This document shows positions 13,919 through 45,286 of a stretch of 64,000 bases of DNA, one piece after another (positions within the stretch are counted from its first letter, which is position 1; every line of letters begins with the position of its first letter). The notes under the pieces are model-generated. The model saw only the letters and a program-made list of their open reading frames with translations. It ran no database searches and was not told where the DNA came from. Both the position numbers and the translations under genes were made by a program. The stretch comes from a virus, in the IMG/VR virus record IMGVR_UViG_3300018080_000139, positions 1 to 64,000 of that record. One strand, given 5' to 3'.

Positions 13919-14002
13919 AGCTGTTCTGTCATAAAAGAGAATTACGAAAACGCCGAGGAGGCAAGGAGAAAGCCACCTGGCGTCCTCATGAGGAGTGAAA
14001 GC

Positions 14003-18569: not shown

Positions 18570-18631
18570 AGGGATATGGCGGACAGAGTTCCGTTGGTGT
18601 TAGGAGCGAGCGGCTATGTCGAGGAGCTGCA
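18147..18631 (+). repeat. 38-bp near-identical repeat (18147-18184 and 18594-18631)
   Basis: TTGGTGTTAGGAGCGAGCGG(T/C)TATGTCGAGGAGCTGCA. Confidence 0.9.
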
Positions 18632-19948: not shown

Positions 19949-19961
19949 AAGGGTGTAGCTG

Positions 19962-22900
19962 ATGGAAGATATACACGGACTGTTGCGGGAATTCTACGAA
20001 AGCGAACTGCTCCTCGAGAGCAAGCAGCACCCGATTGTGAGAGACGTACAGCTCAAAGAGATTTCGTGGTTTGACCTGGCGTTTACCGTTTTTACGACGT
20101 TCGCACCCACGCGCGACATGGCGCGCAAGGACGCGCGCGAAATGGGCCTTTACGGGGCAAGCCTCGCGCGGGCCTGGAAGGCTGCGGCCAAACTCAAAGA
20201 CCCTGTTGTCAGGGAGATGACCCCCCCACCATCGGACGTCACGAAAGGTGGAGAGATCAACCAGGACCGGATGGAGGCGATCGTCAAGCGCCTCAAGGTC
20301 CCGATGAAAAAGATTTACCGGGGCAAGAAGGGCTTCGAAGAGCTTCTCCCCATCGTCAGCGCTTTGAAGCCGACCGCTGTCCAGATGTGGGCCAAACCGT
20401 TCAAACTCCTTCCGAAAAACGCCTGGCCGGAGACGGCCGATGCCGACATGACAACCGACCTCCTGAAGGACCTGGGATGGGCCGAGAAAATCAGGCTCCT
20501 CGCCACCGCGGCCTGGACGGTTCGGTCCCGCGAGATGAACGCCCTGCGCTTTGGCGGGATAGACCTCGAAACTTACAACAACGCGGCTCCGGCGCTCCAG
20601 AAAGCGGGCCTTCTCTCTAAGGCAGCCACGCCGACGATCACCAAGAGCGGCCGCGCGGCCGCCGACGCTCTGGTGGCTCAGCTCAAAGCCAGGACGTACT
20701 CGAACGCCGTCGAGCAGCTCGCCGGCGACGCCCCATCGATTTCGCCCACGGCTGCCCACGCATACGCCGACGAGAAGCCGAAAGCGGCCTCGATGCCGTG
20801 GGGAGAGCAGGTGGCAATCGTCTCCCTGTGGGAAATACAGGGACGCAACAAGCCGGACCGAGAACGTAAACAGGACGCCGAGGACTTCGCCGCGTCCGAA
20901 GTCCACATCACGGCCGATTCCTTCCACTCAGCCTGGGACTCTCTTGTAGCGAAAGGACTCATCGACGAAAAAGCAAATAGACTCACACCCGAGGGCGGAA
21001 AACGCCACAGCGGAATATTTTTGCATCTCGGGGCCGGCGCCACGAAACTCGCCATGATAAAACTCCTGAACCGCGCCCCGGCCGCCGAGATGAAGGCCTC
21101 CCGCGATTTGATGGTGCAGGGGGCTATAAACCATCTGGGCTGGACGGGCCAGGCCGTTGTCGTGGCGATCGACATGCTGGGAGGGGGGAGGTTCCAGCCG
21201 CACCAGATAGCCTCCCTGGCTTACGACCAGTGTGGAATCACACAGGCCGAATGGGATGAGGGATACTCGAAAGCGGCCACGGCCGGCGGCATTATCAAGT
21301 CCCCGACCGGGCTGACAGACTTCGGCCGCCTCGTTTCCTCAGCCGTCCAGGAAGACCTGGGGGCGAAGGGGTCTCGCGTGTGGGCCGCTCTCCGCCGCGC
21401 GAAGCCGGAGAGCTACAAACCAGTGGCCGGACCCGCGTCGGCGTCAAGCGCCCCGAAGCGATTCGATGAGCTTTCGTGGTCCGAAGTAGCGCTCCTCATC
21501 GGCTACTGGAACGTGGGAAACCATAAGACTTTCGACTCCGACGGCCAGATGAAGAACAAGCTCCTCCTGTACTCCGGTCTGGATCCGGGGGACTACATAT
21601 GGGCCCACGAGGCCCTCCGCCAAAAGGGACTGGTTTCGCTTCTCGGGGGGTCAAAGACGGTCGAGGGGGCCGAGATAGCCTCGCAAGTCTTCGCTTTTCT
21701 CAGCGAAAAATACGGGACCTCCGCGCTCAACAGCTTCATGGATCAGATGAACACTCTCGTTGTCGAGAAGCCGAAGGACGTGCGCGCGAAGCTTTCCACC
21801 ACAAACAAGATGAAGCCGAAAGTCAATAAGCCTCTCGCGGCCGCTCCCAAAGCCGGCCCGGCATCCGTGAAAGACGCCGGTCTCACCTGGCAGGAAAAAA
21901 ACACTCTGCTCGTTTTCTACCTCTACCGGGGGGAGGCTTCGACGAAGGAAAAACGCGACAAGGCCCAGAAGTACGCGAACGTGGGGACGGACGAGTACGA
22001 GCTGGCCTTGGCGAAGCTGCAGCGTTTGAAGTTCCTTTCCAAGCGATTCGCCATCACCAAGGCGGGGGCGGCCGTCGCCCAGTCAATCCTCAAGGAGAGG
22101 GGGTTCGAAGAGAAGGCCCACGCCACGACGGTCAACACGCAGAAGGTGTTTTCGGCCGTGGCCGAAGCCGGGGGATACGTCAGCCCCGCGAGAGAGCGGG
22201 AGATTCAAAACCAGGCGGCCGTGGACAAGACGCCGTCGAGGGCTGAAGACACGAAGGGGGCCGGCGGGGATCTCTTGGAAGTCGAAAAGCTCGTGATGAT
22301 GCTCGTCGCGTTCACGAACCCGGGAGAGCATGACTACATCAAGTCGATGCTCGCGAAGGATCTTGGGCGGCCGGCGGGCGAGTTCGACGCCGCCGTTTTG
22401 AAGCTGCGGAAGGAAGGCTACATCCAGCCCTACCGTGACGCCGAATTGAAGGAAAGCGGGGAATGGGAACCGACGACACGGGGGTTCGCCGCACGCGACA
22501 ATATCGAGGACCTCTTGCGCGCCGTGGATGACACGGACGTCGTTGAGATTCTCACGCGAAACCTCAAGACGAAAGCCCGGGCCGCCGACGTTCGCAAGGG
22601 AGTTCTCAAGATCAACTCGGCGGAAGACCTTCGGGATCCGGAGAAGGCTGCCATAATCGCAATCGAGATCGGGCGTAATTCGAGCTACCAGCATCACGCT
22701 TCTCGTATTTACAACGATATGACCTCGTGGAATTTCCGTGACGCTCTGCCTAATCTGGAGGCGGCCTTCCTTGTGGAGGAAGACGAGAATGGAAAGCTCG
22801 GCCTGACAGGGAAGGGCGGGAAGATCGCTGACGAGATAACACACAATCGGTCTCTTTGGGACGCTTTTCGGGAATACATTCGTTCGGGGGCAAAAGAACG

Positions 22901-25900
22901 GCCCACCCCTAAAATCGACTACACGCAAAAAATTGACATCAACAGAATGGGCATCCTGGAAAAAATCACCCTGATTGGCATTTACCACAAAGAGAACATC
23001 AAGGAGATGCAGGACACGTTTGCGCGTGATGAAAACGACTATACAACCCCCACAGAGGAGGAGTTTCAAAAGGCGGCCGCCGGTCTTCTCGGGATAACGC
23101 TCGGGGGGGAGCCCATCATCCGGCCGGAGGGGATTTTCTACACACTCACCCCGGCGGGGAAGGCGACTGTGGACCTTCTCCTCGACGTGATGGGGGTGAG
23201 GAGCCCTGATGATGCTTGGGACGTGCTGGTGGCGCAACTCAATTCCGGTCAGGGCGAATTCGATTTTGAAACGGAGGGGATGGAAGAGCCTCCTTCGAAC
23301 GAGCCCAAAGAGATTTCCTGGATGACTTTCGAGATGAAAGCCGCCCTCCTCGCCGTCGCGATCGCGCAAAAGACGAAGATGGACAAGGAAGATCCCAATG
23401 CAGCCTACAAGCTTTTGGCTTACAACGTCACCGGCGATGACCTGATGTCGGTTATCCCCCGTCTCGCCTCGGACGGACAAGTGGAACTCACCGACGAAGT
23501 AAAGTGGGTGCAGGGTCCGATGGGGAAGACATACGAGAAAGAGCCGGGGGCCCCTAAGCTTACGATTCCGGGTCGTGCGACTTTGGTCTCTCTCCTATCG
23601 TGGCACGGTGATGAGAACGCCAAGGATTGCTTCCGTCACTACACGAAGACTGGGAGCATCGTCGAGCCTCCGTCGGCGGCGGAGATGAGTGCGGCGATTG
23701 CGGCGCACTATGCGAAGAAGCCCGAGGAGCCTTCCGAGCTTTCGGCCGCTATGGACACGCTCACTGCGAAGCCCCAGGACGCGGATTTGCCGAAGGACCC
23801 GGCCCGGATGGAGGGCCCCGCCCCCTGGGAAACCCTTTCCCCTTCAGCACAATTCTTGCTCGTCGTGATGAACGAGGTGGCCCCGTCGCTCACGAGTTCT
23901 CGAGACTACGTGGACGCCTACATGAAGGTGGCCGCGCCTTATGGCTACCGTCTCGGGGACTACGAAAACGACGTGAAGACTCTCCTTCAGACTTCCGGGG
24001 GCCTTATCGGCAAATCGGACGCCGGCTATTTTCCCAAGAGCGAGGCCCGGGCCGCGGCCGCTCAGATCGTTTCCCATCACGGAGCCGGGAACGTCGAGGC
24101 GGCCTTGAAGGCCCTCGCGCCCCAGTTCAAGAAGGCTCGCAGGCAGCAGGCGTCCCCGCCGGCCGGGGCCGTCGCCGATCTCACCTGGGCCGAAAAAATC
24201 GTGGCCCTCGTCTATGGGGCCTCGGACATCTCGCGAGGAAATCGCCGGTGGGTCATAAGCGCTCGTGGGGAGCTGCAAGAATTCGAGATCGAGGATGCTG
24301 TATCTTCCCTGAAGGCAAAAAAGCTCCTCTCCGTGAAGGGGTCCCCGACAGCACGCACGAAGGAGGTTGCGACTGCTATCAGGAACGCCGTCGGAGAAAC
24401 GAATACGGAAAAGGCCGCGGACATCCTGGCGAAGGAGCGTCCGAAACCGGCGGCCCTCCCGGAAGAGCCGGCGGCCCCGGCATCCTTTCCGCCTGTGTCG
24501 GGGGAGGAACCCATGGAGTGGATAGAGTGGGTGGCTCTCGTTGCGTGCATGGCTTATCCGAAGCGCGAAAGGTTCAACGAGGTCAACCGAAGGGTGAATC
24601 CCCAAAAAGGCGGTGGGATGGACCGAAACGATCTGACGGAAGGCGAGTTGTTCCTCCTGGACCGGGGGTTTTTGATCGACGTCAAGGACTCCGATGATCC
24701 TCAGTGGCTCAACTTCGGCCGGGTGCCTAAAGGCCCCGTGACCGAGGCCGGATATGCAGCCGTGCAGAGTCTGCTGCGGAAAGCGGGGATTTCCGGGGAC
24801 AACCGGGAGGCCTACAATAAAGCTTTCGAGTACCTGAAGAAGTACAAGCCGAATCCTCCCGGAGAGATCGGCGCACGGGAGGCGGCTTTCTTGTCGCTGG
24901 TTTCCTCTTTTCCCAGGGAAGCCCGGGCCGTGCTGATGTTTTACTTGTTGTGGCATAACGAGCATCCGAATTCCAGCGCCAAGCGTCCGGAGATCGCACG
25001 CGAGAGGTTCGGAATTCCCGAGAAGGTTTTCCAGGCACAAGCCTTGTTCCTTGAAGAAAAAGGGCTCCTCGAGGCGAACCGTAGCTATATCTCCAACGAC
25101 GGAAGGAGCGCCGCGTGGGCAATCCAGAATTCTCTGCAGGTGGGCTCCCCCGCCTGGGCTCTCGAGGCCTTGGGCTACCCTGAGAGACCCCTTCCCGCGC
25201 ACACTCCTCCCTCGTGGGCGGGCGGGGTGAACGATCTCCCGTGGGATGCCGTGGCTTTCCTGGCCACCATGTACTTCTCGCCACAGGCTCGAAGCGAGGG
25301 CAAATCTAAGCAATCCAACGTCTTGAACACGAATACCGGCTTGCGTACTACCTACTATTACAGTGACAGCAGTTCCGTTTTTCAGCTCGGCCTGGTAGAG
25401 GAAGGTAAAGGTCCGGAAGGCGAAACCTCCTGGAAGCTCACCGACAAGGGGACGAAAATGATGAACGCCGTCGGCCGGGTCTTCGTTCAAATCCATGGGG
25501 TACGGGACGACGGTCGGGATCTGCTCGAAGTCCTCCGCGAGTTTTTCCCGGGACGCGGAAAAGACCTGCCGGACAGGTGGGGCGAGGAGAAGCCGACGCG
25601 CCCAATCACGATGCCTCTCCCGAAGCTCGGAGAGGAACCGGCGGAGGGGAAAGAGCCGTCCGTTGGGCGTTTGAATGTCGAAGAGTTTTCGGCACCAACT
25701 AAGCTGTTTCTGGTGTGGATGGGGCTCGCGGAGAAGAGAAGCCCTCGCGAATCAGCTTTACGGCAAGCGAGATCTGCCGCTATGACCTACGGACTTAAGG
25801 ATAGAGAAATCGCGGAAAATGAGATCGTCCGCTTGGGCCTTTACGAGCCTGCGACGCAGAAACTTAGCCACAAGGGAGTCAAGGCCTTAGATGCTCTTCT

Positions 25901-27230
25901 TCAGTCTTTAAGCGCTGATTTGAGGGGGGCGGAGTCTATTCTATCCAGAGAAGTTCCACGAGGGATTCCGGTTGGGGACCAGTTTCAGCCAGACTTGATC
26001 GTTACTCGTCAGCACTTGATTACACTTGCCTCTTGTATGTTATATCCGGACAGCGAGAGGGAAAGACGAGTATTGGCGTATACGAAGCAGCATGGAGACG
26101 ACTACGACCAACGAGAATACCGGGAGACGCTGCAGGAATTAGAAGATGACCGCCTTTTGGACTTGTCTCATCGTGGACGCGGTGTTATTCCGCAAGGCCC
26201 AGTAACCGAAAAGGGCTATGCGTCACTTCTTAAAGCCTACAAGAATGCAGGAGTTTCGGAGGGAGACAGCGCAGGACTCTTAGCCTCTCTCGTCTCCCCC
26301 CCGGCCCCGGCTCCAACGCCGGCCGCGGGAAATGCCGAGAAAATCATGAACAAGGCGAGTACGGCCGAAAAATCTTTGGTGATCGCATACGGCACGACGG
26401 ACCCGAAATACTACTATGCCATTCCGGACCGCCTCACGGGTCTCCGACATTCTCCGGGCGAGCTGAAGAGGGCGGCGAACTCCCTCGTTCAGAAGGGGAT
26501 TTTCGAGCCGACGGGGCCCGCCGCGATCTTGCCGAATTTCAAACTGACGCAAACCGGGCGCGCCGCCGCCGACTACTTGAGGAGGCTCCTTTCGGCAAAG
26601 GAAGGGGCTAACATGCATTTGCAGAAGCTCCGTCCGACTCACGCAGTGAAAGTCAGGTTCGAAGGGCTTTCGCCAGAGGCGAAAATAGTGGCCTTTGCTG
26701 TGTGGGAGCAAGCCAAGAAGTACAAAGAGCGCTCTCGCTCTATGGGACTTAGTAACAAAGAGATAAAGGCGGCCGTCGAAGAGCTGCAAAATGCCGAGTA
26801 TTTGACGTCGAAGGAGGAACCGACTGGAGACATGTCGACCGCGCAAATACTGGATGCTATGCTGTACCTGAACGCAAAGCCCGGAAGTTACGGGGCGTAC
26901 AACGACGCTTTGGTTACGCTCCGTAACCAAAGAGCCGACCTGGCGAGGGAGAAGCCGCCGAAAGCGCCGGTCTCCTCACCTCCAGCGGAGCCGTCACCCC
27001 CGCCTGTCGAGACCATGACCGACCGCGCCGGGCAAACCTACTCCGTTTCAGACCTCGACCGGATTATCCCCGGAATCGCGAAAGACAAGGGAGCGCTGTC
27101 CATGGTGCAGGAGGCCTTCCGGGCCGGACAGATCGAAGACCAGGACCACTTGCGATTCCTGGCCGACGTTGTGAAAAATTACATGGAACTTCCTGAGAGC
27201 GTGAGGAGGACGACCGGATGGCTGATCTGA
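19962..27230 (+). CDS. giant protein A (2422 aa): array of about 18 divergent winged-helix-like repeats
   Basis: recurring L(S/T)W.EK..(L/V)...(Y/F)..A...L..KGL(I/V)...(L/I)T..G pattern separated by Pro/Ala linkers. Confidence 0.85.
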   Translation: MEDIHGLLREFYESELLLESKQHPIVRDVQLKEISWFDLAFTVFTTFAPTRDMARKDAREMGLYGASLARAWKAAAKLKDPVVREMTPPPSDVTKGGEINQDRMEAIVKRLKVPMKKIYRGKKGFEELLPIVSALKPTAVQMWAKPFKLLPKNAWPETADADMTTDLLKDLGWAEKIRLLATAAWTVRSREMNALRFGGIDLETYNNAAPALQKAGLLSKAATPTITKSGRAAADALVAQLKARTYSNAVEQLAGDAPSISPTAAHAYADEKPKAASMPWGEQVAIVSLWEIQGRNKPDRERKQDAEDFAASEVHITADSFHSAWDSLVAKGLIDEKANRLTPEGGKRHSGIFLHLGAGATKLAMIKLLNRAPAAEMKASRDLMVQGAINHLGWTGQAVVVAIDMLGGGRFQPHQIASLAYDQCGITQAEWDEGYSKAATAGGIIKSPTGLTDFGRLVSSAVQEDLGAKGSRVWAALRRAKPESYKPVAGPASASSAPKRFDELSWSEVALLIGYWNVGNHKTFDSDGQMKNKLLLYSGLDPGDYIWAHEALRQKGLVSLLGGSKTVEGAEIASQVFAFLSEKYGTSALNSFMDQMNTLVVEKPKDVRAKLSTTNKMKPKVNKPLAAAPKAGPASVKDAGLTWQEKNTLLVFYLYRGEASTKEKRDKAQKYANVGTDEYELALAKLQRLKFLSKRFAITKAGAAVAQSILKERGFEEKAHATTVNTQKVFSAVAEAGGYVSPAREREIQNQAAVDKTPSRAEDTKGAGGDLLEVEKLVMMLVAFTNPGEHDYIKSMLAKDLGRPAGEFDAAVLKLRKEGYIQPYRDAELKESGEWEPTTRGFAARDNIEDLLRAVDDTDVVEILTRNLKTKARAADVRKGVLKINSAEDLRDPEKAAIIAIEIGRNSSYQHHASRIYNDMTSWNFRDALPNLEAAFLVEEDENGKLGLTGKGGKIADEITHNRSLWDAFREYIRSGAKERPTPKIDYTQKIDINRMGILEKITLIGIYHKENIKEMQDTFARDENDYTTPTEEEFQKAAAGLLGITLGGEPIIRPEGIFYTLTPAGKATVDLLLDVMGVRSPDDAWDVLVAQLNSGQGEFDFETEGMEEPPSNEPKEISWMTFEMKAALLAVAIAQKTKMDKEDPNAAYKLLAYNVTGDDLMSVIPRLASDGQVELTDEVKWVQGPMGKTYEKEPGAPKLTIPGRATLVSLLSWHGDENAKDCFRHYTKTGSIVEPPSAAEMSAAIAAHYAKKPEEPSELSAAMDTLTAKPQDADLPKDPARMEGPAPWETLSPSAQFLLVVMNEVAPSLTSSRDYVDAYMKVAAPYGYRLGDYENDVKTLLQTSGGLIGKSDAGYFPKSEARAAAAQIVSHHGAGNVEAALKALAPQFKKARRQQASPPAGAVADLTWAEKIVALVYGASDISRGNRRWVISARGELQEFEIEDAVSSLKAKKLLSVKGSPTARTKEVATAIRNAVGETNTEKAADILAKERPKPAALPEEPAAPASFPPVSGEEPMEWIEWVALVACMAYPKRERFNEVNRRVNPQKGGGMDRNDLTEGELFLLDRGFLIDVKDSDDPQWLNFGRVPKGPVTEAGYAAVQSLLRKAGISGDNREAYNKAFEYLKKYKPNPPGEIGAREAAFLSLVSSFPREARAVLMFYLLWHNEHPNSSAKRPEIARERFGIPEKVFQAQALFLEEKGLLEANRSYISNDGRSAAWAIQNSLQVGSPAWALEALGYPERPLPAHTPPSWAGGVNDLPWDAVAFLATMYFSPQARSEGKSKQSNVLNTNTGLRTTYYYSDSSSVFQLGLVEEGKGPEGETSWKLTDKGTKMMNAVGRVFVQIHGVRDDGRDLLEVLREFFPGRGKDLPDRWGEEKPTRPITMPLPKLGEEPAEGKEPSVGRLNVEEFSAPTKLFLVWMGLAEKRSPRESALRQARSAAMTYGLKDREIAENEIVRLGLYEPATQKLSHKGVKALDALLQSLSADLRGAESILSREVPRGIPVGDQFQPDLIVTRQHLITLASCMLYPDSERERRVLAYTKQHGDDYDQREYRETLQELEDDRLLDLSHRGRGVIPQGPVTEKGYASLLKAYKNAGVSEGDSAGLLASLVSPPAPAPTPAAGNAEKIMNKASTAEKSLVIAYGTTDPKYYYAIPDRLTGLRHSPGELKRAANSLVQKGIFEPTGPAAILPNFKLTQTGRAAADYLRRLLSAKEGANMHLQKLRPTHAVKVRFEGLSPEAKIVAFAVWEQAKKYKERSRSMGLSNKEIKAAVEELQNAEYLTSKEEPTGDMSTAQILDAMLYLNAKPGSYGAYNDALVTLRNQRADLAREKPPKAPVSSPPAEPSPPPVETMTDRAGQTYSVSDLDRIIPGIAKDKGALSMVQEAFRAGQIEDQDHLRFLADVVKNYMELPESVRRTTGWLI

Positions 27231-30200
27231 AAAAGGCCTTGGAATTTGCCTTGCAGTTCAAAAGCGTGGAGGCTGCCGCCGACCATGCCGCCAAGATTCG
27301 CGAGGGTGGGGACGAAAAGAAGCTCAAAGGCGCGAAATACCAGGCAATAGTGAAGAGCATCGAGAAGGGGGGCACGAAGGCGGAAGCGGTTTTTGCGATG
27401 CGTAAGCTCGGGCCCAAGGACTTTGCTGTTCTCGCCGTGGACTTTCATGGAATGCCGCTGACGACTCTTCGAGGTGTCGTCTCCAATCCCGAACAGTATG
27501 CCGTGCGCGCGAAAATGGAGAAGTTGAAACTGTACGAGCCCGGCCGGACGGGTGTCGTCTCCGACTTCGGGGCCCAGGTCCTGAACCTCGCGTATCCCAA
27601 CAGGACGTACAAAAATGAAAAGGCCCGGATGAAGGCCATAATGGATGATGTCTACAAGGAAGCCGACGCGAAGGCCTCAACGCCGACCGAACCCCAGCCC
27701 GACCCCAAGAAAGCCCTCCCGGTCGTCCCGGTCAAAGCCAAATACAAAATAGCGCTCGAGCGTCTGACGCCCGAGGAAAAAATCGTCCTCGTTTCGATGT
27801 CGGCCTACCCCATCGGCACGAAGCCGAAAGGCTTCCCCGGGGAATCCGTCCGGACTAAAGACCAGGCCGCTCTCGCGCAACGGTACACAAAGCTCACCCC
27901 CATCGAGTTCGTGCGGATCCAGCGGGAACTCTTCCGCGGGAAGAAGCGGGAGGGGCAGCCGGTAATCCCCCCCGTCACGTTGGGGGGCCAGAGGATTTTC
28001 CAGCAGGACTTCGCCACGAAAGACTACATCCTTTCAGACCCCGGAAAGAGCGTGGCGGACTCGATCAGAAACGCGCTCAACCAGCGGACGCACATCAAGA
28101 CGCTTCAGGCCCTGAAGAAGGAGCGTGACGCCGTGCAGGCCGCCGGCGGCCCGGAGCTTTTCGCGAAGGGGGTGAAAGCGCAGACGATAAAACCGCCGAT
28201 GGGGAGGCCTGCAGCGGCCCCGCCTCGCGTTACGATCGCCGACCTGCAAAAGCTGATGGATGACTTCCGGGAAGTCTTCGACAAGGAAATCCTTGCCGTA
28301 AATCGTTATGAGGTTTGGGAGACACCGAGAACGAAGAAAGCTTATGAGACTTTGCGCGATGATGTCATTCCGCGGCTTGTCGCCTATTGGAATTCGATGC
28401 CGAAGGGTGAGTTGGCAAAGGAATATGACAAGCACATAGAGGCTTTGCAAGACAAGTCGATGGAGCGCATGGTGATTACGGCGACACAGACACGCGCTCA
28501 GTTTCTCCTTCCCCTGCAGCACTTGGCAGCCATCAATCGTTTGGGGGAGATCGACAGAGAAGAATGGAAAAACGACAAGGCCGCTCGCCTCGATTTCAAT
28601 TCACTTGTCCTCGATGAAAAGGCAATGGTTGTTGCCCTTGCCGTCCACATTTACGACCCCAAGGAAATAGAGATTTACACTGGGTTCAATGGCAGAGAGC
28701 AGGAAGATGCTCTGAAAAGCCTGAAGGATAAGAACATCGTGGTCCTTCCCCGCATGAAGGGGAACGACTTCACGCGGCCCGAGGAGTTTCGGGCTCAAAT
28801 AGACGAGCTTGTGAGGGAGGACTATCAGCATGGGGTCGCGAAGGGTGCCTTGATGCGGTTCGCAAAAAAGACTCATTTCCCTGCGCTCTACAAACCGCAC
28901 CAGGCTGCGTACATAGTCTTGCTTTGGAAAGCTCAAAAAAGTTATGGTGACGTCACCAATGAGGAGTTTTATAAAGTAGCGAAAGAGAATGGCTATGGGC
29001 GCATGGGAGTTATGTACGCGGAAGACGCGCGCCGCTGGGCGAAAAAAGAGGGGTTGATTGAGACTGGACGCTACGACGTAGGAAAACTAACGCCTTATGG
29101 GGAGGCGTTTTTCGATTACCTATACTCGATTGTCTATCGCGGAAAGACCGTACCGGAAATGCTGAAGGCCTTGCAGCCTAAAGTAGAGGTAGACAAAATC
29201 AAAGTCGATCTCGGCGCCGGCCCCCTCACCCTAGCAACATCACAAACTAAGGCCATGACCGCCGACGACACCGGCCTGTCTTGGGAAGAAGAGATGGTGG
29301 CTTTGAGCTATCTCGCCAACGTCAAAAAGTGGGGGGGCCACCCTGACTATCGGAGGTTTATGACCACCGTCGTTCTGAGGCTCATGTCCTCCGACGAGTT
29401 CGATCGGGGCCGGGAAGGCCTGCAGAAGAAAGGCCTGGTGGGGAAGAGAGATCAAGTCACGGCCAAAACCCGGGCGCTCGGAGAACTCATCAAGAAACGT
29501 CTCGGAATGCCGGAAGGAACCGTCCAGGGGGCGCGCGACGCCCTCGCGAAAAAGCGCCCCGGCGGACCGCTCAACATCCAAAACCAGGCCACGGATTCCG
29601 CGGAATCCCCGGTGGCGTCCGCCATCGGCTCGCTCATGCAGTCCCCCCAAGCGCAAGGCGAGGACATGATCCCGGGCTCTCTCCGGGTCCCCCTCTCCGC
29701 GCGCAACAAGCTTCGCGGCGCGTACACCATGAACGACGCCGAGCTGAGCCGCCTGGTTGACGACTTTATAGCGGGGAAACAATACCTCGCACTGGTTCAC
29801 CTGTCCTCGATCCTTCCTCAGAATCCGAACATCTCGCCGCGGACGCACGACGGCCTGAGAATGATGCTGAAAGACCAGGGATATGATGCCTTCGCAGGGT
29901 TCGAGGAGGCCATGGATTATGGGCTCGCCGACGAAGTGCTGCAGATAATCGGGACGGCGACGCACCCCGGGAAAGTCGTTCCGTTCGCGAAGCTCCTCCC
30001 GAGGATTCGCAAGATCGTCACCGATGACGGCAAGTGGGAAAATCGGTATGCGGCAATCCGGATCCTCAACGTCGGTCGGGACACGTCCGACGAGGCCATG
30101 GCGCAACTCGAGAAGGCCCTCGAGGACCAGGACGAGCGTGTTCGCGGAATTGCCAAAAAGACCTTGGAGAAGCTCGGGAAGTCCTCGGGCGTCCTGACCG

Positions 30201-33200
30201 CCGTGGACAAGAGAACGGCGACGGAGCCCGGGCCCGAGGAAAAGGAGCCTCCTCGCCGGCCGGACCTGAAAGACCTATCGTGGGGTGAGCTGGTGGCTCT
30301 CGGCGTGTGGTCCTATCACCCCAACGTCGACCGGGGAATGATAGGCGATCGGCTTGCCAAGTACAAGGTCGAGGCGCCGGCGACCATCCTGGCAAATCTC
30401 GAGAAAAGACCCGGAATGATTACGACGGAGGTGCCAGGCGAAGAGGACCTGGAAGGTTTCGAAACCGTCGTCCCCCTCCCCTCGGACGAAGGGATCGTGC
30501 TGTGGGCCCTGACCGACCTCGGCCGTAGTGTGGGGGAAGACGTCCGGCGCCTGGTCGGCAACCCTGCAGAGGCTTTGAAATTCCGACAAAAAATGCAAGA
30601 ATTTATCCCGGACCGGGAGTCGGCCACGTCGAAGCCGAAGCCCGCCATATTTGCCGGGCGAGAGGAGAAGCGGGAAGCCTCGGGCCTGTGGCACGAGGGG
30701 GAAAACCGGGCCGCGGACGCGCTGGTGCTTCTCCCACTCAAGGGGATTCCCTACATACTCCTCATTCAGCGAAGAGATGGGACCTATGCTCTTCCCGGCG
30801 GATTCGTCGAAGGGAACAAGCCGGGGGCGGCCGCGGCCGCCGACGCCTCGCGTGAGGAGGTGGAGCAGGAGACCGGGCTCTCGCTTCCACCGAAGGCCCG
30901 TGAAATCGGCTACTACTCCGACAAGGGGAGAGACCCCAGGTCTACGGGTGACAGGTGGGTGTCCACTCGCGTATTTGCGTACCACATGCCGGACGCTTCG
31001 AATCTGCCTCCAGTAACGCACGAAGGCGACCCGGACGGCGGGGCCCGGCACGCGCTGTGGGTGACGATTCCTGAAACTCGAAGACTCAATTTTTACGCCG
31101 ATCACGCGAAGATCCTTAAAAAGTATCTCGAAGACGAACTACGAAACATGGCGGCTGAAGGCCTGCTCCTCCACGACGTCGTGGATGAGGTCCTGTCCGG
31201 CGTGAAATCTCGCGGGAAAATCCCCGAGATGAAACTCGACCTGTCCCGGCTGGCCTGGACGGAGAAGGTAGCCCTTCTCGCACAAAACGCCTGGTGGACG
31301 TCGATTGACGAGGTGGCCGGCGGGATGAGCCATGCCGTGGACGCTACTGGGATCGGAGAAGACGAGTACGAGGACGCTCTTGGCGCCTTGATGCAAGTAC
31401 AGATGGGCGGTGAATACATCATGAAGCCCGTCGGAAGAGTCACGTCAACAGGCGTGAAGGTTGTCGATGCTTTGCTGGCCGAGCTGCAAGCAAAGTCCGT
31501 GCCGGAGGCTTTGAGAAAGCTCAAGGCCTCCCGGCCATCCACGCCTGATGCGAAGGCCGATGAGGCGGACCTATTCGCCGGAGAAGGTCGGGACATTGGC
31601 CAAAAACTGAGAATTTCGATTCGACGACCTGACCAGGAACTGACCAACGAGGAGCTGACCGCGCGCATCAAGCACGACGTGGGCCCGTCCAAGCGTCAGG
31701 AATCTTGGAGCTTCTTCGTTCAGCGTCGCAGTCTGAAGCCGGGGATTGACGCCAAGGAATATTGGGCTATCTGGGACAAGGTCCGGCCGAACCCACACGA
31801 ACGAGAAATTGAAGTCACGTTCGAGCCCACGCACAAAGAGACGCTCACCGGGGCCGAAGTGATGGTCATTCGGGATAAAGAGAGTCGCGGCGGTTATCTG
31901 GCCATTTTCGCGTCCGGGGCAACCTCACAGATCACGCGGCACACACCCAAACAAAATTTCGTTTCCCTGAAAGACGGAACCCCGTTCAACTGGGGTTTCC
32001 CGCCGGAGGAAAAGAAGGCTCCGGCGTCGAAGGTTGTCTTGACTCCGGAGGGCAAAAGCCTGTCAGGGGAAGTCCAGGACTTTCTTCAGAAAATCGACGA
32101 AAAGCAGAAAGTAGCTCTCTTGGTCGCCGCAATCCCAGAAATTTGGAGTAAAGCGAACGCTCGGGACTACAAAGAGGCAGTTTATCTCGAGGCTACCGGG
32201 GGAGACGATGAGGACTACTGGAGGCAGATAAGCAGGCTCGAGGAGCTGGGGGGGACCGATTCGCATGGCGTGGTGACGGAATTCGGGGCCGAGGTGGTCA
32301 AAGGCATCACCGGCGGGAGGAGCCCGATTGAATTTCTACATTACAACAAGGGGGTAACGTGGCGGGTGTCTCACTATTTCTACGGCGAGACCTTGCCTCC
32401 CCGGCTGGGCCCTGCGATTTTGGCGATCCTGCTTTCTCGCAGCAGTCCGCGCGACGAGTTCCAAAAAATGAAGTGGAGCATCGAGTGGGTGGAGTACGGG
32501 AACAAGTACTTGCGTGAGCAAAACCTCCTGGACTCCTCCAACAAATTGACTAAAGAGGGGATGTTTACGGCCTACGAGATTTTCGCCTCCGCGGGGACCA
32601 GCAAACTTTCGGAAATTCTTGCGAGGCTCGACCGGCAACTGCGTTTGGACTCAAAGCCAGGGCACGATTACGCCGTCGAAGTGGCGGCCCCTCCGGGGTC
32701 TTTCGAGATGGGCATGGGAAAAATGAAGCTTCGTAAGGGTTTCTCTTCCCCCGTTTCCGTAATGCGAAAAAAAGAAGGGGAACTCCCCTTGCCGAAGGAA
32801 CTGGAAGGGTTCAAGTTGTCCGGCAAGCTTGCAAGCGTGCCAAAGCTTGTGGCTCAGATGTTCCGAATAAAGAGACCACTCAAGAAACGGAAAGAGATCT
32901 ATGAGAAGCTGCATGTAATCTTGCGTGAGGAACTGGAAGACCGGCTCAACGACGCCGGTGTGCATTCGGCCTATTACGCCGGCGGGAAGATGTCCGATTA
33001 CCGGGGTGGGGTTTACAGTGGGCTCCTCCGCGTCCTGACTCGTAAGGATGCGCTGGGAAAGCCGGAGACCGAAAAAGATATATTGATGAATGCGCGTTCC
33101 GTGCTGTGGAGTGCGGAAAAGGCCCAAGCCATGGTGGACGATCTTATCGCAAAGTACGGCAAGAAACAAAAGGAAGGCCTGGAGAGCATTTTGCCGCACG

Positions 33201-34957
33201 AGGAGCCGAAGTCCGTACCTCTCGCCGATGTCTTGAAGGCCTCGTACCTCAAGATAGTTGCCGGCCAACCGTACTCGGCCGCGGTCTACCTGTCCGAACT
33301 GTTCCGGGAGGCCCGCAAGCTTAACGCTACCTTGTCCGTGGAAGAGTTCAAAAAAACAATCGAGGACCTGGAAAAGCAGGTCGTAATCGACGCCGTTCCG
33401 GTGAACGATCGGACGATGGTGAAAAGTGGCGAGTACGCGATCACGCAGGCCGACGGAGGCATCATAGACTTTATCATGTGGCGGGAGACAGCGCAAAAGC
33501 GGGCGCAAAAGTCTTCGGTTCCCCCGCAGACATCGAAAGAGCCGGAGCTTTCCAGGGAAGAACAGGTTGCCTTGCTCGTGCTGACGCTGAAGGCCTTAAA
33601 TCCCATCCAAAAGAAGGAGAAGGCCTACCTGTACGGGCTTCCTCACGGCAAGTTCGAAGACACCCTTCTCTCTCTCAGGGAAAAGGGGTATGTCGCCCAG
33701 GGGACGAGCGCGAATACGGCCGGAAAAGACCGCGCCACAGCGATCGCGAAGGAACTCAAGGCGAAGGACGCTATAGGCGCCCTCGAAAAGATCTCGGAGG
33801 CGCGACCGGACCTCTCTCCGACGGCCGCGGCCGTTTCTGCAATCGGCGCGCCTTCGCCAAAACTGGCGTCCGTGGGCAGCCTCTCGTGGGAGGAGAAAGT
33901 TGCGCTCCTGCTTATCTACTCGACGAAGGGGAGCGCGCGGCCCGGCGCTGGGGAGCGCATGGCCGGACTCAAACGAGATGCCTTCTTTGCCGCTGAGAAG
34001 ACTCTCATCGACAAAGGCTTTGCCCAGGCGGCTCCCGGGGAAAAATCGGCCCTCATGACCGAAGAAGGCGTCAAGGCCGTAGAGCGTATGATCGCCGATT
34101 CCGGGCTGCAATACGCCGAACAGCTCATCAAGCAGATGTCCCGAAAGGATGAGGGCCTGGAGTTCTCCCGGCGGAGCTATTCGGATCCGGAAGCCTTTCC
34201 CACATTGCACCGGCTTTACATCGAGGAAGCCGAAAAGCAACCCATGATGGCGGGAAATCTTACTATCTCAGAACTTTACGATGGCATGGTTGCCAAGGGC
34301 TTTTCGAATGACGTCGAAAAGTTTAAATCGGCTTTGCTCGGATGGATGAAGGAGCGAAAACTCACACTCTGGGTGGTCGACTCTCCCCGCCTCGAGCCGA
34401 GATCGAAGACGGATGGCATACCCAGTGATCGGGGCCTTTTGTATTTTGTTCGGATGCCGCGCGAAGGCACCCCTGGCGCGCCGGCGCCGGCGCCATCGGC
34501 ACCCACAAGTCAACCGACGGACCCCGACGCAAGCAAGCCTTCAGTTTCCGCAGCAAAGAAGAAGTACACTTTGGATTTCGATAAGGCCGGCGATAAACGG
34601 AAGAGTTTTCCATATGTTGCACGTCTGTTCCTCGACGACCGCGGGGCGGTGAAGCGGGACTTCAAGGACCTCAATCGAGAGTATTTGGGAAAATATGATG
34701 TCCGCGTGTACGGTAGGTACACCGTGGAAGAGGGGGAGGTGCTGGAAATCCAAGAAGGGGAGGGATCGTGGAGAGATAAGGACCGGCATATTTACATCGT
34801 ATTGGCCGGCGAAGAGCGTTACGTGGGGAAGGCGACAGACGTTAAAGTACATCGTCAGATCACAGAATATTTGGGCGGCAAGATAGAAGTGGAAGATATT
34901 GCGTTTAAGAGGCCTCTTATACAACCACCACAGGAGGACCCCAGATTGGAAGATTAG
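27218..34957 (+). CDS. giant protein B (2579 aa): about 11 wHTH-like repeats, a HEAT repeat, a Nudix domain and two further wHTH modules
   Basis: same repeat (LSWEEKVALL, LAWTEKVALL, LSREEQVALL); LEKALEDQDERVRGIAKKTLEKLG (HEAT); YALPGGFVE...EQETGL...GRDPR (Nudix). Confidence 0.85.
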   Translation: MADLKKALEFALQFKSVEAAADHAAKIREGGDEKKLKGAKYQAIVKSIEKGGTKAEAVFAMRKLGPKDFAVLAVDFHGMPLTTLRGVVSNPEQYAVRAKMEKLKLYEPGRTGVVSDFGAQVLNLAYPNRTYKNEKARMKAIMDDVYKEADAKASTPTEPQPDPKKALPVVPVKAKYKIALERLTPEEKIVLVSMSAYPIGTKPKGFPGESVRTKDQAALAQRYTKLTPIEFVRIQRELFRGKKREGQPVIPPVTLGGQRIFQQDFATKDYILSDPGKSVADSIRNALNQRTHIKTLQALKKERDAVQAAGGPELFAKGVKAQTIKPPMGRPAAAPPRVTIADLQKLMDDFREVFDKEILAVNRYEVWETPRTKKAYETLRDDVIPRLVAYWNSMPKGELAKEYDKHIEALQDKSMERMVITATQTRAQFLLPLQHLAAINRLGEIDREEWKNDKAARLDFNSLVLDEKAMVVALAVHIYDPKEIEIYTGFNGREQEDALKSLKDKNIVVLPRMKGNDFTRPEEFRAQIDELVREDYQHGVAKGALMRFAKKTHFPALYKPHQAAYIVLLWKAQKSYGDVTNEEFYKVAKENGYGRMGVMYAEDARRWAKKEGLIETGRYDVGKLTPYGEAFFDYLYSIVYRGKTVPEMLKALQPKVEVDKIKVDLGAGPLTLATSQTKAMTADDTGLSWEEEMVALSYLANVKKWGGHPDYRRFMTTVVLRLMSSDEFDRGREGLQKKGLVGKRDQVTAKTRALGELIKKRLGMPEGTVQGARDALAKKRPGGPLNIQNQATDSAESPVASAIGSLMQSPQAQGEDMIPGSLRVPLSARNKLRGAYTMNDAELSRLVDDFIAGKQYLALVHLSSILPQNPNISPRTHDGLRMMLKDQGYDAFAGFEEAMDYGLADEVLQIIGTATHPGKVVPFAKLLPRIRKIVTDDGKWENRYAAIRILNVGRDTSDEAMAQLEKALEDQDERVRGIAKKTLEKLGKSSGVLTAVDKRTATEPGPEEKEPPRRPDLKDLSWGELVALGVWSYHPNVDRGMIGDRLAKYKVEAPATILANLEKRPGMITTEVPGEEDLEGFETVVPLPSDEGIVLWALTDLGRSVGEDVRRLVGNPAEALKFRQKMQEFIPDRESATSKPKPAIFAGREEKREASGLWHEGENRAADALVLLPLKGIPYILLIQRRDGTYALPGGFVEGNKPGAAAAADASREEVEQETGLSLPPKAREIGYYSDKGRDPRSTGDRWVSTRVFAYHMPDASNLPPVTHEGDPDGGARHALWVTIPETRRLNFYADHAKILKKYLEDELRNMAAEGLLLHDVVDEVLSGVKSRGKIPEMKLDLSRLAWTEKVALLAQNAWWTSIDEVAGGMSHAVDATGIGEDEYEDALGALMQVQMGGEYIMKPVGRVTSTGVKVVDALLAELQAKSVPEALRKLKASRPSTPDAKADEADLFAGEGRDIGQKLRISIRRPDQELTNEELTARIKHDVGPSKRQESWSFFVQRRSLKPGIDAKEYWAIWDKVRPNPHEREIEVTFEPTHKETLTGAEVMVIRDKESRGGYLAIFASGATSQITRHTPKQNFVSLKDGTPFNWGFPPEEKKAPASKVVLTPEGKSLSGEVQDFLQKIDEKQKVALLVAAIPEIWSKANARDYKEAVYLEATGGDDEDYWRQISRLEELGGTDSHGVVTEFGAEVVKGITGGRSPIEFLHYNKGVTWRVSHYFYGETLPPRLGPAILAILLSRSSPRDEFQKMKWSIEWVEYGNKYLREQNLLDSSNKLTKEGMFTAYEIFASAGTSKLSEILARLDRQLRLDSKPGHDYAVEVAAPPGSFEMGMGKMKLRKGFSSPVSVMRKKEGELPLPKELEGFKLSGKLASVPKLVAQMFRIKRPLKKRKEIYEKLHVILREELEDRLNDAGVHSAYYAGGKMSDYRGGVYSGLLRVLTRKDALGKPETEKDILMNARSVLWSAEKAQAMVDDLIAKYGKKQKEGLESILPHEEPKSVPLADVLKASYLKIVAGQPYSAAVYLSELFREARKLNATLSVEEFKKTIEDLEKQVVIDAVPVNDRTMVKSGEYAITQADGGIIDFIMWRETAQKRAQKSSVPPQTSKEPELSREEQVALLVLTLKALNPIQKKEKAYLYGLPHGKFEDTLLSLREKGYVAQGTSANTAGKDRATAIAKELKAKDAIGALEKISEARPDLSPTAAAVSAIGAPSPKLASVGSLSWEEKVALLLIYSTKGSARPGAGERMAGLKRDAFFAAEKTLIDKGFAQAAPGEKSALMTEEGVKAVERMIADSGLQYAEQLIKQMSRKDEGLEFSRRSYSDPEAFPTLHRLYIEEAEKQPMMAGNLTISELYDGMVAKGFSNDVEKFKSALLGWMKERKLTLWVVDSPRLEPRSKTDGIPSDRGLLYFVRMPREGTPGAPAPAPSAPTSQPTDPDASKPSVSAAKKKYTLDFDKAGDKRKSFPYVARLFLDDRGAVKRDFKDLNREYLGKYDVRVYGRYTVEEGEVLEIQEGEGSWRDKDRHIYIVLAGEERYVGKATDVKVHRQITEYLGGKIEVEDIAFKRPLIQPPQEDPRLED

Positions 34958-35217
34958 AAGCGGACATCCGTGACTATTACACCAAAACTTATTGGGGACA
35001 CAACGGCCAGCTGCGATTGAGTGAGTTGTGGCCTCATCTGGAAAGTTTGGGATACACACGAGAGTGGGCTAAACCGAAGGTGCTGGAGCTGAAGAACTCG
35101 GGGAAGCTTAGACTACGGGCTGCTATCAATATGTCAGGGCTGCAAGAAGCGGACATCATTCGGGAGCGTAACGAGATCTATTTTGCTCTGCAAATCCCGG
35201 ATCTTATGGATTTCTAA
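34954..35217 (+). pseudogene. detached C-terminal wHTH module of giant protein B (-1 frame)
   Basis: LEADIRDYYTKTYWGHNG...IYFALQIPDL is homologous to the C-terminus of 35234..36031; the frame is broken by an 8-bp duplication at 34943-34958. Confidence 0.6.
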
Positions 35218-35233
35218 GCAGAGGGAAGTTAGC

Positions 35234-36031
35234 ATGGAAGATTTGAAGAAGTTTTTCGAGGCCGAACTGAGTTTAGACTTGCCTGGCTTTGCTCGACGCC
35301 GAAAAGAGTTTTGGGCCCGGATACGCAATGCTTGGGAGTCCTTCCCCTCCTTGGGCAGGGAAACCATCAAAAAGATCGAGGATGAAACTAGAAAATTTGC
35401 GGACAAGGAAAAACATCCCGCGGCTAAAATAGCGGCGAAGATAGCTGGAATACGGGCTATACAAGGGCTGTGGGACATCGACGGCGGAGACGCTTGGCGG
35501 AAGCATCGAATCGAAAAATACAACCCCGTCGGGAGAGCGGAGATTTTGATTAGAAAAGAAGCGGGGAGCATACTGAGGGACGTTTTCGAGCTTGTCTACA
35601 ACACACCACATCCAACTGGGAGCCGGGAGGCTATAGCATATAAAATCCCGCGTGACGCTCAGAAGGTAAAGCCTCTTTATCCAAAGTTCAGGACGGATTT
35701 CGTGGAACCAAAACCGCCAGGGCGCTCTCCCTCCTCGCCAACCCCTCGACCGAATAAACCTGCCTTGGATTTTGTTGGGGACATCCGGGACTTTTACTCA
35801 CGGACTTACCGGGATCACCGAGGGCTAATGCTGCTATCCCAGGCTTTGGATTACGCCGAGAGGCGTTTAAAGCTTAATCGCGGCGACGCTAAAAAGTTGC
35901 TTCTGCAGTACACCAACCAAGGCAAGTTTCGCCTGGTAAAGGCGTTTGAGATTACCGGACTACAAGAAAAAGATGTGATCCGCGAGGGAGGCAAGATTTA
36001 CTTCGCGCTCCAGATTCCGGACTTGCGGTAG
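35234..36031 (+). CDS. hypothetical protein with MEDLKKFFE leader and C-terminal wHTH-like module
   Basis: GAGG RBS; internal paralogy with 34954..35217. Confidence 0.75.
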   Translation: MEDLKKFFEAELSLDLPGFARRRKEFWARIRNAWESFPSLGRETIKKIEDETRKFADKEKHPAAKIAAKIAGIRAIQGLWDIDGGDAWRKHRIEKYNPVGRAEILIRKEAGSILRDVFELVYNTPHPTGSREAIAYKIPRDAQKVKPLYPKFRTDFVEPKPPGRSPSSPTPRPNKPALDFVGDIRDFYSRTYRDHRGLMLLSQALDYAERRLKLNRGDAKKLLLQYTNQGKFRLVKAFEITGLQEKDVIREGGKIYFALQIPDLR

Positions 36032-36039
36032 GAGGACTT

Positions 36040-36423
36040 ATGGAACCTGACATAAAGACGCTGAAAAAACTGGTGGAGGACTTCGACACCCTGTTTTCGT
36101 TTTTCACGCCACTTGCTCCGCAAAAGGCCGGGTCCTACATGCTTCAACTCAAGACGGCCGTCGGAGAGCCGGAGATGAAGCGGGCCTTGGACTATTACGC
36201 GCAGAAGTTCTCCTCCCCTTCTTCAGAAGAAATTCGTGACGCAGCCGAGAACGTCCGGACGTCGCTTGCTGTTCTCAACAAGCGCCTGGACCGGGCTTTC
36301 GACATCGTTTCTTCCAGGGCCTACGAGCGGGAGTACGAGGCCCGATATGGGGAGCCGCCGGCGGACGCTCGCTTCTCGAAAAAAATAAGAGAGGCTATTG
36401 ACAGACTGACTTGTAGGGGATAG
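36040..36423 (+). CDS. hypothetical protein
   Basis: AGGAGG RBS. Confidence 0.7.
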   Translation: MEPDIKTLKKLVEDFDTLFSFFTPLAPQKAGSYMLQLKTAVGEPEMKRALDYYAQKFSSPSSEEIRDAAENVRTSLAVLNKRLDRAFDIVSSRAYEREYEARYGEPPADARFSKKIREAIDRLTCRG

Positions 36424-36427
36424 ACTT

Positions 36428-36937: not shown

Positions 36938-36962
36938 CACGGGAAGCTTTTCCGCGGCGGTG

Positions 36963-38178: not shown

Positions 38179-38199
38179 AAGCAGTGAAGGAGGTTTGCC

Positions 38200-38643: not shown

Positions 38644-38650
38644 GATTGAG

Positions 38651-45248: not shown

Positions 45249-45286
45249 ACGACGCGCTACAAAGCGCAAAACGAAAGGAGAAAAGC

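Follow-up and report, generated by a model that had tools for sequence, protein, structure and literature searches.

The first 64,000 nucleotides (nt) of the virus record IMGVR_UViG_3300018080_000139 (IMG/VR), hereafter the window, hold two adjacent genes for giant proteins, A and B. Both proteins are real, belong to an uncultured myophage whose head is of T4 type, and are built as beads on a string: A is almost wholly a chain of 18 winged helices of the MarR/SSV1 F-93 type, and B carries 10 more alongside other domains. As far as the searched libraries reach, the architecture is without counterpart. From genomic context and a short leader at the start of both proteins we tentatively propose that A and B are cargo packaged in the phage head and ejected from it, their winged-helix beads serving as diversified binders.

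The source record is a single sequence of 95,867 bp from a sediment metagenome, classed as linear, with a CheckV completeness estimate of 63%. Giants A and B occupy 16% of this recorded genome, so the phage pays heavily for them.

Giants A and B carry arrays of divergent repeat units

Giant A (19962..27230, + strand; 2422 amino acids (aa), 266 kDa, isoelectric point (pI) 6.6) comprises a leader, about 160 unexplained aa, 18 winged-helix units and an unexplained tail of 114 aa. Giant B (27218..34957, + strand; 2579 aa as read, 287 kDa, pI 8.8) comprises a leader, 10 units, HEAT-like repeats, a Nudix domain and unexplained segments. Reading of the open reading frames (ORFs) confirmed both genes at the positions given by a first-pass annotation of the window, and the beads-on-a-string build that it had described, with Pro/Ala-rich linkers between units, is supported; the linkers are 15-66 aa long. 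The ATG of B overlaps the stop codon of A by 13 nt and is preceded by a GAGGAGG ribosome-binding site.

Comparison of A and B with themselves by BLAST gave only three distinct weak pairs and was unusable for counting units. Because pairwise BLAST was nearly blind, we built an iterated profile, seeded with the nine units that bear the opening L-[ST]-W-x-E-K and iterated to convergence. The seed profile alone detected nine further units at 3.2-16.4 bits (eight of them at 6.7 or above), against a maximum of 2.7 in 100 shuffled giants, and the converged profile held 21 units, 16 in A and 5 in B. With each unit left out in turn, all 21 scored 11.0-52.7 bits against maxima of 6.5-10.1 in 100 shuffled giants, and a six-frame search of the whole record returned the same 21 units and nothing else. 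Alignment to the unit profile with hhalign added seven degenerate segments at 20.2-28.6, where 52 control windows of 100 aa from nine other phage proteins reached at most 13.6. The profile and hhalign units together therefore number 18 in A and 10 in B. The remaining parts of A, B and the three small genes that follow them (C, D and E) scored 8.7-15 with hhalign, B2005-2108 being borderline at 17.8; scores of 8.9-12.8, within the controls, give no support for units in B51-150, B2320-2420, gene D, gene E, or the C-terminal domain that gene C has in common with the out-of-frame end of B. The first-pass count of about 18 units in A thus stands, and of the roughly 11 that it gave for B 10 are supported, the eleventh, near B60-140, falling away (hhalign 10.7). 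Its description of the giants as repeat arrays fits A, but B only in part, in which HEAT-like repeats, a Nudix domain and about 1000 unexplained aa are also present.

All units lie on the + strand, and their scores are given here as leave-one-out bits against the shuffle maximum. Giant A begins with A169-252 (20466..20717; 52.7 against 8.4), A276-367 (20787..21062; 35.1 against 9.9), the degenerate A390-469 (21129..21368; hhalign 27.9, probability 72%) and A502-591 (21465..21734; 36.2 against 8.0), and continues with A639-724 (21876..22133; 50.0), the unit chosen for modelling. There follow three lower-scoring units, A769-863 (22266..22550; 16.9 against 8.0), A888-969 (22623..22868; 14.3 against 9.9) and A994-1088 (22941..23225; 13.9 against 9.7), then the degenerate A1121-1225 (23322..23636; hhalign 28.6, probability 72%), A1290-1384 (23829..24113; 16.4 against 8.5) and A1405-1488 (24174..24425; 36.0 against 8.9). 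Unit A1516-1620 (24507..24821; 26.5 against 8.0) has a long insert in its wing, and A1648-1736 (24903..25169; 27.5 against 8.2) is followed by A1757-1840 (25230..25481; 15.0 against 8.3), which weakly matches the Pfam family EarA (E 5.5e-5). The array of A closes with A1907-1991 (25680..25934; 18.8 against 8.4), A2015-2105 (26004..26276; 14.9 against 9.4), A2132-2218 (26355..26615; 23.2 against 7.8) and A2234-2308 (26661..26885; 18.4 against 9.3).

In B the five profile units are B181-270 (27758..28027; 11.0 against 6.5), B685-775 (29270..29542; 21.8 against 10.1), B1343-1434 (31244..31519; 38.7 against 8.5), B2109-2191 (33542..33790; 29.4 against 7.8) and B2220-2306 (33875..34135; 31.6 against 8.8). 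The five degenerate ones are B461-535, which is partial (28598..28822; hhalign 23.0 over 48 columns), B564-637 (28907..29128; 26.2, probability 62%), B1018-1114, with a large wing insert (30269..30559; 25.3, probability 54%), B1628-1697 (32099..32308; 20.2) and B1724-1793 (32387..32596; 22.2), the last with a weak match to PF24409 at 1749-1782 (14.7-16).

The helix-1 motifs by which the units had initially been recognised (LGWAEKIRLL, LSWSEVALL, LTWQEKNTLL, LTWAEKIVAL, LSWEEEMVAL, LAWTEKVALL and LSWEEKVALL) are all present, as are the quoted wing motifs. The units are nonetheless very divergent: identity between them averages 18% and reaches at most 35%, and we found no repeats between units at the DNA level, which argues that the array is old or fast-diverged rather than recently amplified. 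The sub-types reported to recur within and between the two genes do correspond to best partners, mutual or one-way (A1516/A2015 at 35% identity, A994/B1343 at 23%, B685/A1405 at 24%), and two-unit blocks near the start of A and near the end of B are collinear, A205-347 aligning with B2146-2286. The AT-richer blocks noted earlier are also real, though modest: where nearby DNA has a GC fraction of 0.60-0.63, it is 0.53-0.55 at 25.6-26.5 kb, and 0.50-0.535 in the block at 28.3-29.5 kb. The module shuffling that the first-pass annotation saw in them, like its idea of a decoy or sponge against host defences, is conjecture. Positions conserved among units are core residues and exposed positions vary, a pattern that fits either diversified binding surfaces or plain drift.

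The units are predicted to fold as winged helices

We modelled unit A639-724 with AlphaFold2 (AF2), giving it the alignment of the 21 units, and obtained a mean predicted local distance difference test score (pLDDT) of 88.8. The model has helices at 5-16, 23-34 and 38-50, a hairpin at 54-60 and a final helix at 62-74. All of its Foldseek matches are winged-helix proteins or chains that bear such a domain. In VIA-align it is closest to SSV1 F-93 (1tbx; Z 9.9, root-mean-square deviation (rmsd) 2.4 Å over 74 of 86 residues), followed by MarR, MepR, the Rio2 N-domain, RosR, PadR and TubR (Z 8.3-9.6); Z scores of this size are common among small helical domains, and the fold call therefore leans on agreement with profiles, the uniform list of matches and coverage of the whole domain. 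Profile searches agree: the Pfam family PF24409 (wHTH-PRTase associated) matches A673-713 at E 5.5e-10 (39.6 bits against a cut-off of 27, passed by this unit only), and a search of the PDB with the unit placed 1tbx first (E 4.6e-4), with MarR at 4e-3 and with S19e and TubR also among the matches. The first-pass expectation of a winged-helix fold is thus sustained, and the assignment of the unit to a MarR/SSV1 F-93-type winged helix of about 85 aa is a sound one for a prediction from model and sequence profiles. The C-terminal end of the PADLOC model of the retron type III-A PRTase (PRTase_III-A) matches A626-710 (E 8.7e-5). A PRTase domain itself (PF00156) has no match in the 95.9-kb record, estimated as 63% complete, in a search whose positive controls were recovered in 14 of 14 genomes.

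The charge of the units departs from that of a DNA-binding winged helix. Summed over the 21 profile units, the net charge of the recognition helix (helix 3) is -19, and it is positive in two units only; that of the wing is -1, and mildly basic sums come from helices 2 (+22) and 4 (+13). Net charge per unit ranges from -9 to +6, nine units have a pI below 5.6, and giant A as a whole has a net charge of -8. Canonical recognition of DNA looks unlikely for most beads on these sequences, and the charge analysis argues instead for non-canonical, diversified surfaces. Six units are clearly basic, with pI 9.3-10 (A169, A639, A2132, B181, B685 and B2109), and could bind nucleic acid.

Searched against 1.84 billion representative proteins, the unit profile found A in 16 stretches (E 6e-281) and B in 5 (E 4e-86); the next match stands at E 3e-11, 74 proteins in all reach E 1e-3, and none of the representatives holds a comparable array. 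A word-seeded search of 5.8 billion clusters, run without the 'longer' and 'shorter' length classes, found no full-length relatives of A, B or gene C other than themselves. Translated comparison (tblastn) of A with 50,697 phage records in INPHARED returned nothing, and neither A nor the capsid protein of the phage found a relative when used for pattern scans of IMG/VR. With Pfam, PHROGs, NCBIfam and PADLOC, the only domains detected in the giants are winged helix, HEAT and Nudix, and neither protein matches a virion RNA polymerase, a tail fibre or another characterised family over its length. The literature that we searched describes no such giant winged-helix architecture, in keeping with the first-pass statement that no comparable protein was known.

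Giant B carries further domains and is truncated

Between its units B has two other recognisable regions. HEAT-like repeats at B929-1005 (30002..30232, + strand) score 28.3 bits with HEAT_2 against a cut-off of 27.7 when the segment is searched alone, and 24.2 in the whole protein. A Nudix domain of the NUDT9 / NadM-Nudix (ADP-ribose pyrophosphatase) type lies at B1165-1302 (30710..31123, + strand; PF00293 E 5.5e-8, 33.3 bits against a cut-off of 21.1), with matches to a Listeria MutT/Nudix protein (PDB 3i9x, 1.7e-5), NUDT9 (1q33, 3.3e-5), NCBIfam NadM-Nudix and PHROG 1198; it is also close to the NUDT9-H domain of TRPM2 and to the C-domain of NadM-Nudix. Aligned through 3i9x with the Nudix box GX5EX7REUXEEXGU, it has Asn rather than Glu at position 7 and four inserted Ala, and the REUXEE part reads E-E-V-E-Q-E, with Arg replaced by Glu and one catalytic Glu by Gln. 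Hydrolysis is doubtful because of this degenerate box; by analogy with TRPM2 NUDT9-H, the domain may bind a ligand without hydrolysing it.

About 1000 aa of B and the ends of A are unexplained. We could assign no fold to B275-450, 1436-1625, 1812-2005 or 2307-2579, nor to the C-terminal domain that B shares with gene C; single-sequence AF2 of B1435-2579 gave a mean pLDDT of 35, and an ESM Atlas search with B1436-1625 gave no usable match.

The end of B as read is a truncation. An imperfect 8-nt tandem duplication, AGATTGGA followed by AGATTAGA (34943..34958, + strand), creates the TAG stop of B (34955-34957) and shifts the frame, so that a further domain of 85 aa is stranded in the -1 frame (34960..35217, + strand). 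This domain and the C-terminus of gene C share 49% identity (BLASTP E 2.5e-23; hidden Markov model score 174 bits against a shuffle maximum of 0.5). The residues R-L-E are read in both frames across the duplication, and with one copy removed B would continue P-R-L-E-A-D-I-R-D-Y-Y to a stop in the -1 frame 16 nt before the ATG of gene C, which has its own ribosome-binding site; the stop as read leaves 276 nt geneless in an otherwise gap-free array. The break lacks a slippery heptamer, which makes mutation likelier than a programmed frameshift. The duplication reads identically, at depth 13.7, in a second assembly of the probable source run, but that assembly derives from the same data and is not independent.

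Short identical pieces of the locus (window 19500-37500) occur as contigs at depth 2-3 in three further runs from other studies, two of sediment and one of seawater, so the phage is not confined to one sample. These pieces show no variant or copy-number difference, none of those listed spans the frameshift site, and no RNA run is among the sequencing runs listed with the locus.

Five consecutive genes share a leader

Giants A and B and genes C, D and E, five consecutive genes, have in common an N-terminal leader of about 10 aa. It reads MEDIHGLLRE in A (19962..19991, + strand), MADLKKALEF in B (27218..27247, + strand), MEDLKKFFEAE in gene C, MEPDIKTLKKLVE in gene D and MEDFKPIFFE in gene E. 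Gene C (35234..36031, + strand; 265 aa) continues with a helical body, a Pro-rich linker and the C-terminal domain shared with B, and is an orphan; gene D (36040..36423, + strand) encodes 127 aa, and gene E (36428..36937, + strand) 169 aa, or 168 aa from its second Met at 36431.

We scanned both strands of the record, which have 826 ATG-initiated open stretches of at least 60 aa. Five gene starts, those of A-E, match the pattern M-(E/A)-(P)-D-(I/L/F/V)-(K/H), one of them at both of two adjacent Met codons; the pattern was written from these genes themselves, and the result thus shows specificity and not significance. A more independent comparison is with phage T4, whose capsid-targeting signal (CTS) is MKTYQEFIAE (PMC8442874); its residues 4 and 7 serve targeting and 8 and 10 processing, and the protease gp21 cuts after L/I-x-E (PMC9026906). 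The leaders of A and E have the T4 spacing: positions 4, 7 and 8 are hydrophobic and position 10 is Glu. This strict spacing was found in three of the 826 stretches: the start of A, the start of E and one beginning at an internal Met of A.

The giants stand upstream of T4-type head genes

The giants belong to a single long + strand array that runs through A and B, the three small genes, a patatin, a kinase pair and a protease ORF to capsid, sheath and tape measure genes. They stand upstream of the head and tail genes on the same strand without gaps, and the preceding gene ends 13 nt before A. The protease is of the T4 gp21 prohead type (Peptidase_S77; PF03420 E 2.2e-16, over the cut-off; PHROG 207) and forms the N-terminal domain of a 605-aa ORF (43431..45248, + strand). 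It is followed by a T4 gp23-like major capsid protein (45239..46723, + strand; PHROG 138, E 1e-50), and a T4-type portal lies outside the window, further along the record (Portal_T4, E 1.7e-35). By these three sequence matches the head is of T4 type. The Peptidase_S77 domain accounts for only the first 180 aa or so of the 605-aa ORF; its counterpart in Thornevirus LIS04 is a 560-aa 'peptidase U9' gene, similarly long, and the rest of the ORF may thus be a fused scaffold. By capsid protein the closest cultured relatives are Thornevirus LIS04 and SP-15, at 35% identity. They share the order protease, capsid, neck, sheath with the record, and the 20 kb upstream of their protease and capsid genes contain no giant genes.

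The stretch that separates the leader-bearing genes from the head protease (36897-41223) has two small genes and genes for a phospholipase of the patatin type (Pfam E 7e-27), for a protein of 506 aa that weakly matches GAF, and for a Ser/Thr kinase (Pkinase E 4.5e-15); the leader is absent from all of these. At the other end of the array, the rightward block starts from a divergent promoter region at 13.0-13.9 kb, a gap of 43% GC between the - and + strand blocks; the DNA polymerase gene (6898-9564) is on the - strand. At 13074-13102 on the - strand a perfect TTGACA-17-TATAAT with extended TG points to the replication genes. The first gene of the rightward array is a 912-aa ORF (13988-16726). 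Nowhere in the window is GC higher (63-64%), and its sole family match is a sub-threshold zinc finger (Vps36 NZF-N, E 5e-5). Two adjacent small paralogues (18129-18569 and 18576-19082) share the N-terminus P-L-V-L-G-A-S-G-Y-V-E-E-L-Q-x-G-D; one weakly matches 'phage cement protein' (E 0.006), and both match PHROGs without known function. Within the giant locus, scans for sigma-70 promoters and terminators gave chance-level results.

Possible roles of the giants

Our tentative proposal, drawn from context and the short leader, is that A and B are head-packaged, ejected cargo whose beads are diversified binders. A, B and the three small genes would form one cargo set. The amphipathic leader of about 10 residues would dock each protein to the scaffolding core of the prohead, as the T4 CTS does, and the gp21-type protease would remove it after a Glu. 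Carried inside the head, the cargo would exit together with the DNA; a string of small helical beads that fold independently, with flexible linkers between them, is a form that could thread the tail channel. In the new host the many distinct winged-helix surfaces would serve together as multivalent binders, the mostly acidic or neutral surfaces (basic in DNA-binding relatives) holding host proteins and a minority holding nucleic acid, and the Nudix-like domain might bind or hydrolyse an ADP-ribose-type nucleotide. Because the leader and a gp21-family protease occur in the same operon, T4-like loading of A-E is by analogy a reasonable hypothesis, though not a result, and giant packaged phage proteins have precedent in the N4 virion RNA polymerase and in predicted polyvalent proteins (PMC5512222).

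Several observations weigh against this proposal. The leader is short and its pattern derives from the five genes that it picks out; the leaders of B, C and D fit the T4 spacing only loosely, with the Glu one residue earlier or a one-residue insertion; and the shared N-terminus may reflect common descent of A-E, since one C-terminal domain occurs both in gene C and, out of frame, at the end of B. The neighbouring patatin and Ser/Thr kinase genes have no leader. T4 internal proteins are basic and of 10-20 kDa, and the giants are near neutral and of 266-287 kDa. A sigma-70-like site with 10 of 12 matches (13880-13907, + strand) stands just ahead of the 912-aa ORF that heads the rightward block and would allow early transcription of the block, and the T4 late-promoter motif TATAAATA has no match across the 64-kb window.

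A more specific form of the proposal, which we consider unlikely as stated, is an injected covalent library, in which about 28 long-diverged beads in two giants and three small proteins, all CTS-tagged, would each neutralise or capture a different host factor, such as a defence protein or a nucleic-acid signal, with the impaired Nudix domain a trap for an ADP-ribose-type nucleotide. Among the targets there could be partners of the retron type III PRTase effector, the protein from whose C-terminal domain the closest named family of the bead is known. Such a library, if real, would be a new modular form of injected multi-target counter-defence.

Among the alternatives, the one that survives best, and that we regard as possible if somewhat doubtful, is that A and B are never packaged. 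They would instead be intracellular multivalent scaffolds or sinks, organising a replication or assembly zone or sequestering host proteins, and their common N-terminus would be a trace of ancestry or a feature of translation initiation. Winged helices are often protein-protein adaptors, as in cullins, ESCRT-II and kleisin partners, and the acidic recognition helices suit such a role; the sigma-70-like site at the start of the rightward block and the paralogy within the block, seen in the domain shared by gene C and the end of B, also speak for it. Set against this, the giants are embedded without gaps in a strand block that runs on into the head and tail genes, the leaders of A and E have the spacing of the T4 CTS, and a gp21-type protease is present.

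A second alternative accepts uptake into the prohead and has gp21-type cuts in the linkers release about 28 winged-helix internal proteins of about 10 kDa, the size of T4 IPI, or makes of the giants an inner-body-like core for DNA packing. The phage has a gp21-family protease, an enzyme that cuts after Glu with few other determinants, and PhiKZ-like phages process many head proteins at S/A-x-E (PMC9026906); the unit size of about 85 aa also fits. Linkers often open with (A/E)(K/E)(K/R)P, which occurs 9 times in A against 4.1 expected, 8 of them 4-36 residues past the end of a unit. This roughly twofold enrichment lies within the shuffled maximum, and we rejected the motif as a cleavage signal because it is too weak to claim. 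A-x-E and L-x-E are too common to be diagnostic, and a Glu is rightly placed in only some linkers. We think this polyprotein or head-core role improbable.

Less probable again is a DNA coat, raised in the first-pass annotation as coating and shielding of injected DNA: the giants would be covalent strings of DNA-binding winged helices laid on phage DNA in the capsid or on entry, protecting it from restriction or CRISPR. Most fold relatives do bind DNA (MarR, PadR, TubR, AspA), the six basic units and the mildly basic helices 2 and 4 would allow it, and packaged anti-restriction giants have a precedent in the Dar proteins of P1 (PMC5512222, PMC12810830). Recognition helices that are acidic on balance speak against a uniform coat, and the near-neutral wings, the nine acidic units and the negative net charge of A disfavour it for most units; at 18% identity the units are also too divergent for a uniform, sequence-independent coat. 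Decay of a selfish domain after runaway expansion, with uniqueness and the frameshift of B as signs of erosion, is very improbable: the giants are orphans, the last domain of B is out of frame and several units are degenerate, yet 5001 codons are still open, the AF2 model is confident, identical pieces recur in the three further metagenome runs, and all 28 units keep the hydrophobic core signature of their fold at 18% identity, which requires purifying selection. A small share of the probability we assign to none of these readings.

Winged helices are among the commonest protein modules, and yet a chain of 18 and 10 of them has no relative among billions of sequences. If the leader of our proposed cargo is a capsid-targeting signal, T4-style loading of diverse cargo would extend to distant phages and to proteins of 270 kDa, and the giants would be a natural example of very large proteins built to pass a phage tail. 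If the beads are diversified binders, they would offer a ready set of small folding domains, and their targets could reveal defence or regulatory factors of the sediment host.

Comparison with known systems

The proposed cargo set has a parallel in the internal proteins of T4. IPI, IPII, IPIII and Alt, like A-E, have a short common leader on otherwise unrelated neighbours, a gp21-family protease and a T4-type head, and the internal proteins of T-even phages are a diverse anti-defence set with the CTS as the sole common part (PMC3012670). The leaders of A-E are not homologous in sequence to MKTYQEFIAE, however, and packaging of A-E is a prediction. Polyvalent proteins of phages and conjugative elements, very large and multidomain, encoded beside virion genes and predicted or shown to be delivered with DNA (PMC5512222), offer a second parallel. 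The giants are like P1 DarB and DdrB and the N4 virion RNA polymerase in size and in their virion-gene neighbourhood, and Nudix domains occur in related contexts there. Polyvalent proteins, in contrast, mix many different domains, most of them enzymatic, and a link to MuF or portal is frequent among them, whereas giant A is one domain type repeated 18 times; we detected no MuF, methylase, helicase, peptidase or ART domain in the giants with the four domain libraries, and no MuF in the record.

At the level of the single bead, SSV1 F-93 and the MarR and PadR proteins (1tbx, 3vb2, 4ld5) have the same topology of three helices, a β-hairpin wing and a C-terminal helix, and superpose on the unit model in VIA-align with Z 9-10 and rmsd 1.9-2.8 Å over 71-79 residues. 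They are single-domain dimeric DNA binders, whereas the giants chain 28 copies with mostly acidic recognition helices. PF24409, the best sequence family for the unit, is the C-terminus of retron type III-A PRTase effectors; it is single-copy and PRTase-linked where known, unlike in the giants, in which one unit passes the threshold in a record lacking a detectable PRTase. The unit's closest database relatives also match PF24409 weakly.

Other proteins with several winged helices reach far lower copy numbers. HTH_67 proteins (about 900 aa, 5-6 copies), TrbI-fused repeats and a 339-aa protein with three tandem units match the unit profile at E 3e-11 to 2e-5 and are cellular or conjugative. No more than 3-6 of their units are credible, and most of these proteins, the TrbI-fused ones included, match from helix 3 to the wing only. 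A 1656-aa protein (P0027), with '7 stretches', was rejected as a relative; it is an unrelated perfect tandem repeat that matches over 20 columns only.

The nearest single-copy relatives, found on 16 viral contigs of IMG/VR, form a family of about 200 aa (P0015, P0016, P0019 and others; loci L003-L018); an IMG/VR pattern scan with one member found none. The family has a conserved N-terminal domain with the motifs F-P-x-Y-x-G-R-K-F, W-D-G-G-S-R and V-E-H-S-I-F-C-G-K-D. Its C-terminal 80 aa align over positions 2-80 of the unit profile, with E down to 7e-8, and share with the unit the opening L-T-W-x-E-K-I/V-V-L and the wing I-T-x-x-G-R-N. There the bead occurs as one copy behind an unrelated N-terminal domain, in genes that lie among small accessory genes, and not as part of a giant protein. 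Its presence on 16 viral contigs makes the bead a domain of phage lineages, normally single-copy.

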